A stretch of 64,000 bases of DNA from Escherichia coli. GTDB lineage: Bacteria; Pseudomonadota; Gammaproteobacteria; Enterobacterales; Enterobacteriaceae. Below, piece after piece: positions 21,001 through 27,000 of this stretch. The position numbers are program-made. Position 1 is the first letter of the stretch. Each line of letters begins with the position of its first letter. The stretch is taken from the NCBI RefSeq assembly GCF_030013595.1, contig NZ_CP122768.1. One strand, written 5' to 3'.

Positions 21001-24000
21001 TCACCTTTGATCAAAAACGCCAGACGCTTCACCTCCAGTTGCGGGCTGCTAACTTTGCCAGTTTCGACAAACTGCGTAGTGCACTGGCAACCGATTATGT
21101 TGTGCAACAGGACGCGTTACAGAAAGAGGGTGATGCGGTTTCCGGCGGCGTAACGTTGCGGAGGAAATAACATGTTACGCGATAAATTTATTCACTATTT
21201 TCAGCAATGGCGTGAACGCCAGTTAAGCCGTGGCGAACACTGGCTGGCACAACACCTGGCGGGGCGTTCTCCGCGTGAAAAGGGCATGTTACTGGCAGCG
21301 GTGGTGTTCCTGTTTAGCGTCGGATATTACGTCCTCATCTGGCAGCCGTTGAGCGAACGGATAGAACAACAGGAGACAATGTTGCAGCAACTGGTGGCGA
21401 TGAACACCAGACTGAGGAGCGCCGCGCCGGATATTATTGCGGCGCGAAAATCCGCCACAACAACGCCTGCGCAGGTATCGCGGGTTATCAGTGACAGTGC
21501 TTCCGCGCACTCGGTAGTCATCAAGCGGATAGCCGAGCGTGGGGAGAATATTCAGGTCTGGATAGATCCGGTGGTGTTTAATGACCTGCTGAACTGGTTA
21601 AACGCGCTGGATGAAAAGTATGCGCTGCGGGTGACACAAATTGATGCCAGTGCTGCTGAGAAGACTGGGATGGTGAATGTGCAGCGGCTGGAGTTTGGAC
21701 GGGGGTAAAGTATCAGGAGATTAATATCAATAAAATTACTCTCGTTAACGTGGCGAGAGTAATTCCCCCAGACTTTATAAGCTAATTTTTTTCGTGAAGG
21801 TTATTGTCAGATCCAAAAGCAAAAACCCGCCTTGTGGGCGGGTTCTTAAGAATTAGTGGTGCCGGACTCGGAATCGAAAATTTCTTTTATCATATTGATA
21901 TTAATATAATTTATTTGGTTTGATTAAAAATGTACCCTCAATTATACCCGCAGTCCCTTTTGATATCGAAAGGGAATCACACTCGGGATCAGGCTGAGAG
22001 CACAGAAGGAAAGTACCTGGCTATTATATCGTTAATTCTGTCAATCAGTTCCAGCCTTTTGAAAGTGATGTGTGCAGATCCCTTCTTAAAGTATTTAATG
22101 ATGAACATCTCGTCTTCATAGCGCTCTTTACCCTGAACGGACTGGATGTGACCATCCAGACGAATAGTGATGTTTTCCCGGTTGTCGGGGATCGGTTTGC
22201 CGCTGAACAGATGTAGCATTCTTTCCAGGTCGACGAGTCGGTCAGTCTGTTGCCCGGTGATAAGATGAAACCCCCACCGGTCCCACCTCACCAGGTTGTT
22301 GACGATAATTTTACTGCCAAATTTGCAGGGGCAATTGGTTTTGTAATTCCAGCTCAGTCCCCTGAAGACGTTGATCACCCCTCGCTCAAACACCTCATCC
22401 TTGTTCTGGTGTAGTTGTTCAAATGTGCTCAGAATGTTCGCTTCACTGATTTCCGGAAAATTATCGTACTCCAGTGACCGGTACCATGTATCACGGGCCT
22501 GTGCATCCATTAAGGAAAGCATCCCTGAACGTTGCATCAGGTCACGCCAGATTTCGCGATCGAGATTGCGTGTGATGGCTTTCATTGCGGTTTCCGGTTT
22601 CTCCATCAGCCAGCAGCCGCAGCGAAAATCCTGTTTCATGGCCCAGTCCGGGGCGGTTTTGCCGCCAATGCCTGCTGTCAGCACTGAGATTTCTGCCAGT
22701 TGCCGGATAAGCGTTTCGGTTTGTTGCAGTGCTGCATTCCGTACCGTCACAACGTGTTGGATACTGGTGGAGCAGATAACGTCCGTATGCCCGGTGACCA
22801 CTTCCGGACGGGAGATTGTGATGTCTGACATTATCGGTTTTCCTTTTGGTTTATAAACGAAAACGCCAGCTGTATTCAGGCTGGCGTCAGGGGAATGAAG
22901 TATGGTGAGTGATATTCACCGGTTCTGGTGCAGAAGCTGCAGATGACGAAGAGCACGGACATCCTTCCGGGCCTGTTCGATGCAGGGCAACAGTGCTGCT
23001 GAATCCGTTCTATCCTCATCGTTGTCAAAGATAATTCCCGATTCGCAGTCGATATTGTCCTGTAGCCACGCAATCAGAATATCCAGTGCGGTTTCCGTGG
23101 TTAATGATTTCATGTTGTTTCTGGTTACCAATCGAAAGTGGGCTGGTCCGGCAGACATTCAGCGCTGGCATCCAGATGAATAAGACTGACGCCATAACGT
23201 TGGATGAGTGTGACAACCAGACGACGGAACGTTTTTGACAACCCCAGGCGTTTAAGCCGCAGAACCGGATATGACCACGCATCGGTACGTAACAGATACC
23301 CTCTGCCTGTGAAATGAATCCATTCTGATTCACCGAAGTCACTGGTCTGGTGTGACAGCGAGTACAGCCAGGCGTTATCCTTTTCCGTGATATGTGCGGT
23401 ACTGCAGCGTATGCCGGCAAGGGTTGCAAACGGTGGTAGTGTGCAGGTTGACTGTTGGTCGGATTCCTCCACCACGCGGAGTGAATAACCGTTTTCAGCG
23501 ACCTTGTTAATCAGTTCAGTGAGATTAACACCATCGACATCAACGACAATTCGCCCCATGTTCAGTGCCTGCACATTAATGCTGTCGGCTTCCAACGTCA
23601 GGGCCAGTTTCATTGTTTCGCCTCCGGATGCTTCCCCTGGGTAATGTTATTTACCGTTCTGTAGTTATCGCGGGTCATCAGGCCGGTTGCCCTGCGAGCC
23701 CGGAGAATATCAATACTGTTTATTAACTGAGAGCGGGTACAGGCGCTGAATCCCGGCTGGTCGGTACGTACCAGTGCGTATTTTTCAACGAGAAAGTTCA
23801 CCGCATCACACAGTGAAATGCCAGCTTCAATATGCTGCTCAATCACACGTTCATCGGCGAACGGTGTGTCATTCAGCGTAAGGCCGTAATGCTGGTCCAG
23901 CAACCGGGACAGCAGTGTCTGCCAGATGGTGACGGGAGACGGGCAGCGCGATGCCTCCCGTACGTGTGTGTCGGGTAATGTTTTCATACTGAAGATTTTC

Positions 24001-27000
24001 CTGATATGCAGAGATGAAAAATGGAAAAGTGGCGTGGTGAAAACACCAGGCCGGAGCAGAAGATTATTCTGATGATTTACTTTTTCGTTTCGGGCGTCGG
24101 ATAAACAGCCAGATAAACGTAACCACAGGAGCCGAAGGTGTCGGCTTCGCAGGTCAGCCCTTTCGCATACAGTGTCACGGTATGCTGATGGTGGGGATTC
24201 AGTTCACCGCTGGTGAGCATGAGTTCCAGTTGTTTCATCAGCAGCGGAAAGGCCTGGTCCAGGTGGTACGAATCCGCGTCGCTGAACCGGCCTCTGATAC
24301 CGGCGCGGTCTGTAAGGTAATGCAACCGGTTACCCTCCTGCACCAGACGTGCCCCGAAACAGGGCGTCACGGTGCAGGGCAGCCCCCACCAGGGGCGGTC
24401 GTTGTTGTTGTCGGGATGCGTTGTCCCGGGCAGTGTGTCTGACACGATAAAGTCCTCACAGAAATCAGTTAAGAATGGTTCGATGGTGGCGATAATTCGG
24501 CTCATCAGAATGCCCTTCCTGACTCAGTTCAGGGTGACGCTCATCAGCCGGACATACGGGCCAAAACTGTCCTTACGACGTTCAGCAAACACGGCCAGCA
24601 CACCGGGAATATCCTGCACTTCACGACCGGTATACGCTTCAGTGCTGCCGTGCCAGCGGTATTTGCCGGTACAGAACGGGAAAAGACGGGATGCAGGATG
24701 TTGTTGATGAATACGCATGGCTTCGCCACGGGTGATGATTTTCATGGTGGGATACCTCTGAAGACAGAAGATAAAAGTGAAAACAGGTGTGATGTGATTG
24801 TGGCGGTAACGGGTTAAAGCAGGCCGTGTTCCGCAAAGGAGAAAACCTGGCTGCCACCGACTATCAGATGGTCCGGCACCCGGATATCCACCAGGCCCAG
24901 TGCCTGTACCAGACGTTCCGTGATAAGGCGGTCTGCCTTGCTGGGTGTGACTTCACCGGACGGGTGGTTGTGTGCCAGTATCACGGCGGCGGCATTGTGG
25001 TACAGGGCACGTTTAATCACTTCCCGGGGATGGACTTCCGTGCGGTTGATGGTGCCGGTGAAGAGGGTTTCACCGACAATCAGCTGATTCTGGTTGTTCA
25101 GATACAGCACCCGGAACTCTTCCCGCTCCAGTCCCGCCATGTTCAGAATCAGCCACTCCCGTGCCGCATGCGTGGAGGTGAAGGCCACGCCGGGTTCATG
25201 AAGATGGCGGTCCAGGGTTTTCAGGGCCCGCTGAATGAGGCTGCGCTCGCCGGGCGTCATCTCTCCGGGCAGAAAGGAAAGCTGTTGCATTGTTCCGGCC
25301 CCTTTCAGTCAATGATGCACATAATGGCGTTGCATTCCGGATGCTGCAGGGCGTAATCCCGCAGCCGGTAATAATGGACCGTCATGGCATAACACTCCGT
25401 ACGACAGGCATGATGGCTGTACGTCATCAGACAGGCAGCAATGCCGGCGGCTTCCGGGCTCATTTCAGCGCGGTTACCGTTCATGGCACTGAACAGTACC
25501 CATGTTTCGTCATCATCGTCATCCGGTTCGGGTGCCATAAATGCCCCGCCGTTGTTCAGGGTGTACAGATTCCAGATACCACCGCAGTAGTCTTCGCACA
25601 GACGGTCCATCCAGCCGAAGACACGGGGCTCCAGGGTCACCCACTGTGGAATGAGGCCAAAATGCTGCGGCCAGAAGCTGATGCGCTGTTCATCAGGGAC
25701 GAGGGTGGCAACCAGTTGAGGCGGGTTATTCTCTGATACAGCGGTTACGGAAACAGAAGGTGTGGTGGAATTATGCAAAACGGTTGTCATGAGATTATTC
25801 CTTATAAAAAGTAAATGAATGGAAGAAGTCGCGGGGCAGGGACGGACATGAGTCAGAACTGCGCTTTCAGGGAAAAGGCATCAGCGCATACTCTTCAGCA
25901 GTGTTTCTGCCATCACCCACAATGCGCGATTGAGCTTAATGTCCGTGTCGATGCTGTGAATGGCACGGGTATGGATACGTTTTCCTCTGGCACTGCGACC
26001 GGAAATCCCGCCTTTCAGCATATTCTCCTGGATGGTCTGATAAGCACTCCACAGGTCCTTACCGTAATCCTCCCGGCGTCGCGGTGTCAGAATGTCAGCA
26101 GTGGTGACGGGCTGATGTTCGTCACCATAACGGTAAGTCAGTGCCGCCTGTGCCAGCGCCTGGCGTGCCGGTGGCGGCAGGACCAGCGACTGCATGGCAT
26201 CACGCTTCTCCTCAATCCGGTCAAAAACCCCCACCACCTCGTAAGCCCCTTCGATAACTTTCTCCACTACGTCTCCCCGGTGTGGAACACGCACTTCCCC
26301 CAGAGACTGACCACAGACGCATCCGTTCTGGCAGACGAACCTGAAGTAACCCGGCAGCATCTGGTAGCTGGAGGTACCGTCATGAGAGTTCAGCAGGATG
26401 ATTTCAGGGACATGTTCTCCGTTTATCTCTCCGGCCCGCCGCAGACGCAGCATGTGTTTGGTGTATCCCCGGCGGCCCGGGTCGCGCACGCGGGTCTGGC
26501 AGGCGAAGAATGGCTGGAAGCCTTCCCGCTGCAGGCTTTCCAGCACGGTGATGGTGGGGATCCAGGTATAGTTCTCGCTTCTGGATGTGTGTTTCTCTTC
26601 CCCGAATACGCTGGGGACGACCTGCATCAGTTCTTCACGGGTTAAGGGGCGGTCACGGCGTATCTGGTTCGCATAACCAAAACGACTGGCTAATCGCATG
26701 ATTTATTCCTTATGAATGAGTTAGCGGTATAAATGAAAAAGCCGCGTCTCCCGGAGAAGACGCGGCCTGATGGACGAAATGAATGACGTTTATTGTCTGA
26801 GAAGCCCTTCACTGGCGAGCTGCGTATTTTTATGGAAGGAGATCACCCAATAACCCCATCGGGATCGGGCAATAACCGGCCAAATTGTGAACGATTCAGA
26901 TGCCATTTGGCAGCAAAAGAGCCTTCGGCAATAAACGTGATGTACAACCCGGCATATCTGTTGCTCCCTGAAAGTAAAAAGCCCCGGTCATTATGACCGG

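Follow-up and report, generated by a model that had tools for sequence, protein, structure and literature searches.

Three of the cryptic prophages found in strain K-12 of Escherichia coli carry related versions of a small gene module built around a toxin-antitoxin (TA) pair. The CP4-6 version (yafX-ykfG-ykfH-yafW-ykfI) and the CP4-57 version (yfjX/lfgA-yfjY/lfgB-ypjJ-yfjZ-ypjF) share a five-gene order of ArdB, RadC-like, DUF987, antitoxin and toxin genes, and CP4-44 carries yeeS-yeeT-cbeA-cbtA-yeeW. The subject here is the corresponding cluster at positions 23125-25790 of a 64,000-nucleotide (nt) stretch of the E. coli contig NZ_CP122768.1 (assembly GCF_030013595.1), called the window below, in which six intact open reading frames (ORFs) lie back to back on the minus strand. 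The cluster is an already described, ordinary and ubiquitous E. coli island module in intact form, and it is very probably the core of a nine-gene accessory run on a P4-type tRNA-Phe island, orthologous to the K-12 modules of CP4-44, CP4-6 and CP4-57. The nine co-oriented genes of the run are, in order, DUF932, ArdB, RadC-like JAB, DUF987, CbeA, CbtA, DUF5983, DUF957 and DUF4942.

Identity and conservation of the cluster

Each of the six ORFs matches a single Pfam family (DUF5983 through separate N- and C-terminal domain models), with scores far above the curated cut-offs, and the RefSeq annotation of strain NDM2, whose copy is 99.8% identical, gives these genes matching boundaries, with a cbeA of 369 nt that corresponds to the version starting at GTG. 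The original prediction, made from the sequence without database searches, had named these six genes and given the extent of the cluster and the coordinates of cbtA, and in this it was correct; its description of a conserved CP4-type arrangement also holds, the identity, order and strand of the genes being those of the K-12 modules, with the CP4-44 subtype nearest. The extent that it gave covers the right genes but cuts a longer run, which continues with DUF932 upstream and with DUF957 and DUF4942 downstream.

Of 5426 complete E. coli genomes, 5373 matched a 5.3-kb query around the cluster; the median number of matching places in a genome was three. Contigs encoding exactly the same protein number at least 1000 for CbtA, 738 for DUF5983 and 694 for the 122-amino acid (aa) CbeA. 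Against a copy on the Klebsiella IncFIB/IncHI1B plasmid pKPN1481-1, with 68% DNA identity, the ratio of nonsynonymous to synonymous substitution rates (dN/dS) is 0.10-0.24 across the run genes with estimable dS, a range that covers the genes other than DUF5983, for which dS is saturated; for the genes within the cluster itself it runs from 0.11 to 0.24. The recurrence of exact proteins together with the low dN/dS puts the cluster far beyond chance, and the purifying selection supports the view that the genes of the run are functional. It is highly improbable that we are looking at a decaying, non-functional remnant of the kind seen in parts of the K-12 cryptic prophages. The K-12 copies are indeed truncated (in yeeW and ypjJ, with ardB lost in CP4-44) and the BREX (bacteriophage exclusion) cargo of the present island has been broken by an insertion sequence (IS), but none of the nine ORFs of the run is shortened and each has a plausible ribosome-binding site, the metal-binding motif of the RadC-like protein and F65 of CbtA are intact, and neither the dN/dS range nor the presence of exact alleles on hundreds to thousands of contigs fits decay.

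Several observations nevertheless weigh against the main reading of the cluster. Position 15 of this CbtA is a Cys, and the substitution R15C abolishes the MreB interaction of K-12 CbtA; 60 nt upstream of the GTG of cbeA there is an ATG in the same frame, preceded by a good Shine-Dalgarno sequence, that could yield a 142-aa CbeA; a promoter scan of the run found no convincing sigma-70-like promoter; and two strong terminator-like hairpins (26739-27005, minus strand) separate the stop of Ag43 from the start of DUF932, with only about 40 nt from the second of them to the DUF932 ATG. Because of the last two, a single transcript for the run is an assumption.

A scan of the run proteins with the NCBIfam models gave nothing further besides RadC. 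Locus L007 (Logan SRR18740011) was rejected as a relative: it is this same module in an assembly with bisulfite-like C-to-T conversion, and its proteins are artefacts, among them P0150 ("44% identical"). Such proteins inflate the apparent diversity of the families and were set aside.

Comparison with related modules

The closest relative is CP4-44, which shares with the present cluster gene order, strand, the GTG start of cbeA, a spacer of about 89 nt between cbeA and cbtA, and the ATGA junction that follows cbtA. The protein identities to CP4-44 are 97% for YeeS and YeeT and 90% for CbeA and CbtA. The present cluster retains the ArdB and DUF932 genes, in whose place K-12 has yeeR, and at the other end it carries a full 162-aa DUF5983 followed by DUF957 and DUF4942, whereas an internal deletion in K-12 leaves a 64-aa YeeW. 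For annotation, the present locus is useful as an example of the module outside K-12 that is intact and includes both ArdB and the complete DUF5983-DUF957-DUF4942 tail.

The CP4-6 and CP4-57 modules are more distant. Their toxins are 59-65% and their antitoxins 64-66% identical to the present ones, and shorter; the spacer between antitoxin and toxin is 20 nt rather than 89, and the DUF5983/DUF957/DUF4942 tail is absent. Their toxins do, however, share the Cys at position 15 with the present CbtA. The Klebsiella plasmid copy preserves the whole gene order, DUF932 through DUF4942, and also the 4-nt overlap between cbtA and DUF5983 at 60-77% protein identity; it differs in having two additional small ORFs, a TTG start for cbeA and an unstructured spacer of 49 nt. 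The same run is also found on conjugative plasmids of Klebsiella and Enterobacter.

A 2025 preprint describes tRNA-integrated defence elements in which RadC/ArdB, CbtA/CbeA and DUF genes form "moron" operons at the repeat opposite the integrase (PMC12458937). The present island shares with these elements the integrase at a tRNA, a defence payload (here BREX) and the RadC/ArdB plus CbtA/CbeA plus DUF operon at the opposite repeat; it differs in that its BREX is incomplete, with pglX cut by an IS and brxA/B/C absent.

The CbtA toxin

The gene cbtA (yeeV; 23610-23987, minus strand) encodes a toxin of 125 aa that matches the whole of the Pfam profile CbtA_toxin (PF06755, E 4.4e-63) and is 90% identical to K-12 CbtA. 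The twelve differences from K-12 are unevenly placed, with ten of them within residues 6-24, including S14R and R15C, and residues 25-116 are identical. F65, the determinant of the FtsZ interaction, is present; in CbtA, YkfI and YpjF alike, the F65S substitution leads to loss of FtsZ binding (PMC5624674). R15, the determinant of the MreB interaction in K-12 CbtA, is absent, there being an Arg at position 14 and a Cys at position 15. In K-12 CbtA the R15C substitution abolished the MreB interaction, but the protein was still lethal, filaments formed, and FtsZ-dependent toxicity was left (PMC5624674). Furthermore, YkfI and YpjF carry C15 natively and YpjF nonetheless binds MreB (PMC5624674), so R15 does not define the family.

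Alignment to K-12 CbtA and CbeA and to their paralogues, which the original prediction had proposed as a check, thus finds the toxin intact and without any inactivating substitution: residues 25-116 are those of K-12, F65 is kept, and C15 is compatible with toxicity. The dN/dS of cbtA, 0.18 when the comparison is with K-12 and 0.11 when it is with the Klebsiella copy, also supports function. Since F65 is present and C15 leaves K-12 CbtA lethal, this allele is predicted to be toxic, its targeting of MreB being uncertain. By analogy with K-12, it would bind FtsZ, for which F65 is needed, and probably MreB, blocking division and elongation. The Cys at position 15 suggests weaker MreB binding, and this allele may act mainly through FtsZ; as a natural Cys15 form of CbtA it could serve to separate FtsZ from MreB targeting.

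A PHROG profile of 649 positions and unknown function also matches CbtA residues 17-81 with its internal positions 271-335, which indicates that a CbtA-like domain occurs within large phage proteins.

The spacer that precedes cbtA (23988-24076, minus strand; 89 nt) contains two hairpins, with a folding z of -3.3. The second hairpin lies at 24030-24048 and has a U-rich tract after it, and the sequence UUUUCC in the spacer is predicted to pair with the Shine-Dalgarno region of cbtA. In K-12 CP4-44 the 89-nt spacer is nearly identical, whereas the hairpins are absent both from the 49-nt spacer of the Klebsiella copy and from the 20-nt spacers of the YkfI/YpjF-type loci. The hairpins may lower the amount of toxin relative to antitoxin, in the manner of an attenuator.

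The CbeA antitoxin and its start

Directly upstream of the toxin, on the same strand, lies an antitoxin gene of the CbeA/YeeU family, cbeA (yeeU; 24077-24445, minus strand), encoding a type IV antitoxin of 122 aa from a GTG start. The longer reading frame 24077-24505 matches Pfam CbeA_antitoxin (PF06154) at 3.2e-53, and the protein matches the solved YeeU structures 2H28 (1.1e-75) and 2INW (6.9e-77); it is 90% identical to K-12 CbeA. Masuda et al. (2012) reportedly found that CbeA counteracts CbtA by bundling filaments, which is reflected in the name of the Pfam family. On that analogy, the present CbeA, translated from its GTG, would neutralise CbtA without binding it, through bundling of FtsZ and MreB filaments.

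The start codon deserves some attention, as the original prediction had proposed the GTG somewhat cautiously and a competing start lies close by. A GAGGA stands ahead of the GTG at 24445, and K-12 cbeA too starts with GTG, at the homologous codon. The Klebsiella plasmid copy has a TTG at the equivalent position, only 23 nt past DUF987, which leaves no room there for an N-terminal extension. In the present allele a short leader of 20 codons (24446-24505, minus strand), with an ATG at 24505 and an AGGAAGG Shine-Dalgarno sequence, begins 18 nt past the yeeT stop and is in frame with cbeA, which is how the longer, 142-aa CbeA could arise. In K-12 the homologous leader ATG begins an ORF of its own, 16 codons long, whose stop comes 12 nt short of the GTG. 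Among protein-database clusters, the 142-aa form of CbeA has about 630 members, against more than 15000 in the clusters of 119-126 aa. Given the GTG of K-12, the TTG at the same position in Klebsiella, the RefSeq call and the minority standing of the 142-aa form, GTG is the family-conserved start of cbeA, and the proposed GTG start holds; the upstream ATG was considered as the true start but is less favoured, opening as it does a separate ORF in K-12 and having no room in the Klebsiella spacing. A 142-aa CbeA as an additional isoform in this allele is possible, and the leader ORF may couple the translation of yeeT to that of cbeA.

DUF5983, the full-length yeeW

The gene that follows cbtA (23125-23613, minus strand) encodes a 162-aa protein matching both DUF5983_N (PF25638, 1.1e-30) and the C-terminal DUF5983 model (PF19419, 4.1e-20). 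The original prediction had noted an ORF of this length with a start overlapping the cbtA stop. The ORF is real: the cbtA stop and the DUF5983 ATG overlap as ATGA at 23610-23613, and the gene is the full-length version of the shortened yeeW of K-12. The K-12 yeeW is a 64-aa stump, in which (by tblastn) DUF5983 residues 5-64 are followed by a jump to the last 30 residues of DUF957, and the present cluster is seen, on alignment, to hold the undeleted, ancestral form of the yeeW region.

A GGAGG lies inside cbtA, 7 nt upstream of the DUF5983 ATG, and both it and the ATGA overlap are kept in K-12 and in the Klebsiella plasmid copy, despite the divergence of the latter. DUF5983 would be translated by coupling to cbtA through this arrangement, and we infer that the two are co-expressed. 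The family is a small one: at 50% identity it comes down to 218 representatives, a good many of which are fragments. A 30-member alignment shows near-invariant residues at S71, H74, D79, W98, G105, P116, G124, S126, R130 and W162, and AlphaFold2 models residues 61-162 with a predicted confidence score (pLDDT) above 90, the N-terminal domain being modelled poorly. No solved structural relative of the C-terminal domain was found.

These features raise the question of whether DUF5983 is a functional third partner of CbtA and CbeA, either a coupled modulator or a second antitoxin, in what would be a three-component system. The conservation of the overlap and of the GGAGG out to the Klebsiella copy points in this direction, as does a lineage survey in which the CbtA/DUF5983 pairing recurs across E. 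coli sequence types, with DUF5983 always downstream (PMC10790755), and as does a C-terminal domain that is predicted to be well folded and in which S71, H74, D79, W98 and R130 are conserved. On the other hand, the K-12 CbtA/CbeA pair is a complete TA pair despite the 64-aa stump of yeeW, the YkfI/YpjF-type loci have no DUF5983 gene, and distant DUF5983 proteins stand alone, without cbtA, in phages and on an IncFII-RepA plasmid, where the homologue is 40% identical. We therefore regard a third partner as unlikely. It is about as doubtful that the full-length DUF5983 tunes the toxicity of CbtA or its release, or alternatively that the spacer hairpins attenuate toxin expression; a role for DUF5983 would be hidden in K-12, which carries only the truncated yeeW.

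Antirestriction and RadC-like genes

The ArdB/KlcA-family gene (25305-25790, minus strand) encodes a protein of 161 aa that matches Pfam Antirestrict (PF03230, 3.9e-36) and a PHROG annotated as anti-restriction (9.3e-63), and that is 68-74% identical to YafX and YfjX of K-12. Among solved structures it matches the ArdB chain 2WJ9 at an E-value of 1.3e-96 and KlcA (2KMG) at 4.2e-19. By sequence, the protein belongs with KlcA and the ArdB of PAI II CFT073 (2WJ9). In vivo, CFT073 ArdB as well as YafX and YfjX of K-12 relieve restriction by all four Type I families (Serfiotis-Mitsa et al., PMC2836571), and the same ArdB-family proteins showed no inhibition of EcoKI in vitro (PMC2836571). The suggestion in the original prediction that the module may counter host restriction after transfer is backed, by analogy, by the in vivo work on these homologues. 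Reasoning from these near-identical proteins, the present ArdB would relieve Type I restriction of incoming DNA by an indirect route, not by DNA mimicry.

Next to it, the RadC-like JAB/JAMM gene (24814-25290, minus strand; 158 aa) matches Pfam RadC at 2.2e-44 and TIGR00608 above its cut-off, and its translation has the metal-binding motif H107-x-H109-x7-S117-x2-D120 intact. The protein is 97% identical to YeeS, 78% to LfgB/YfjY and 78-83% to the counterparts in CP4-6 and CP4-57. The CP4-57 paralogue YfjY, now LfgB, is a protease reported to cleave the antitoxin MqsA (PMC10846083), and the present protein would, by analogy, be a JAMM metalloprotease like it. Between this gene and cbeA lies the yeeT-like DUF987 gene (24524-24745, minus strand), encoding 73 aa, with a Pfam DUF987 match of 2.1e-39 and 97% identity to K-12 YeeT.

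Possible roles of the module

TA systems on mobile elements often act as addiction modules. The original prediction held that the module probably stabilises the island, a claim for which we found no direct support and which fits poorly with a type IV antitoxin acting on the targets of the toxin rather than on the toxin. That the TA pair is mainly an addiction module stabilising the island is in our estimate rather unlikely, though somewhat less so than a third partner. In favour of such a role, the module occurs on a mobile island whose integrase is intact and which has direct repeats, and also on large conjugative plasmids. In the literature search, however, no stabilisation experiment on CbtA/CbeA was found, and a K-12 strain deleted for all nine cryptic prophages, including the three with these pairs, is viable (PMC3105296). 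Paralogous antitoxins moreover cross-neutralise (PMC5371832), and this, with about three copies in most genomes, would blunt post-segregational killing.

It is still less likely, in our view quite improbable, that CbtA/CbeA is an abortive-infection system against phage complementing the defence cargo of the island. BREX genes are present on the island, and islands of this type have been described as defence-carrying mobile elements (PMC12458937), but the PADLOC defence models gave zero matches among the nine run proteins, CbtA and CbeA appear solely as a TA pair in the retrieved literature, and the neighbouring ArdB is a counter-defence rather than a defence protein. Taken as a whole, the block would probably help the island to establish itself in new hosts, with addiction or stabilisation a possibility.

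Flanking genes of the run

The first gene of the run (25881-26699, minus strand) is a YafZ-like DUF932 gene, with a Pfam DUF932 match of 4.8e-51, 76% identity to K-12 YafZ and a RefSeq annotation in NDM2. Downstream of DUF5983 lies the DUF957 gene (22916-23113, minus strand; 65 aa), known from the RefSeq annotation; it has its own ATG 11 nt past the DUF5983 stop. No match for this ORF was found in the 2025 copy of Pfam, but it is clearly constrained, being 77% identical to the Klebsiella copy with a dN/dS of 0.105. The AntiFam entry ANF00264, marked there as "spurious" but argued in a 2026 preprint to be real, is probably this same sequence. The idea of a programmed frameshift between DUF5983 and DUF957 (bioRxiv 10.64898/2026.06.09.728211) was considered and found no support in this locus: there is no slippery heptamer, DUF957 has an ATG of its own, and in the Klebsiella copy the DUF957 frame does not open until 4 nt from the DUF5983 stop. 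With no slippery site and a closed frame in Klebsiella, separate initiation of DUF957 fits better than frameshifting.

The last gene before the island boundary encodes a 280-aa DUF4942 protein (21989-22831, minus strand; Pfam DUF4942, 1.6e-66) and is conserved on the Klebsiella plasmid. The protein also matches part of a PHROG annotated as a DNA methyltransferase (1.4e-15), and there are hints of a methylation-related role for DUF4942.

The tRNA-Phe island

The P4-type island that carries the run is about 30 kb long (21857-52360) and lies at a tRNA-Phe gene, pheV, between yghD/gspM, of the gsp type II secretion genes, and pheV itself. The integration site, the tRNA-Phe (GAA) gene identified by ARAGORN (52285-52360, minus strand), is adjoined by a P4-type tyrosine integrase (50822-52087, minus strand) with Pfam matches to Arm-DNA-bind_3, Phage_int_M and Phage_integrase. 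The other boundary is an imperfect 23-nt direct repeat of the tRNA-Phe 3' end (21857-21879, plus strand); 21864 and 52293 are the only sites of the 15-mer GGACTCGGAATCGAA, against 0 expected by chance. The nine-gene run ends about 100 nt from this distal repeat, and the cluster serves as a marker for that end of the pheV island, the one away from the integrase.

Further genes of the island include Ag43, a YeeP-like GTPase, Hha and the BREX-1 remnant (39322-47717). In the latter brxL (39322-41406) and pglZ (41417-44020) are intact, pglX (44191-46689) has been shortened to 832 aa by an IS and lies next to a DDE transposase (46749-47717), and brxA/B/C are absent. In NDM2, by comparison, the 99.8%-identical module sits on an island with a complete BREX.

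The native pheV terminator is left at 21820-21848. An Rfam scan of the region from 21 to 31 kb gave solely an IS102/IsrC-like RNA and a sub-threshold match on that terminator; the IS102 match (29891-30127, minus strand) scores 68 bits, above the gathering score, and lies just upstream of Ag43, a placement comparable to that of the isrC small RNA upstream of K-12 flu. Between the IS and the integrase are a gene for an outer-membrane beta-barrel protein (48101-48841) and one for a 499-aa sulfatase/EptA-type phosphoethanolamine-transferase-like protein (49001-50500), which are possibly cargo for the modification of lipid A or of the cell surface.

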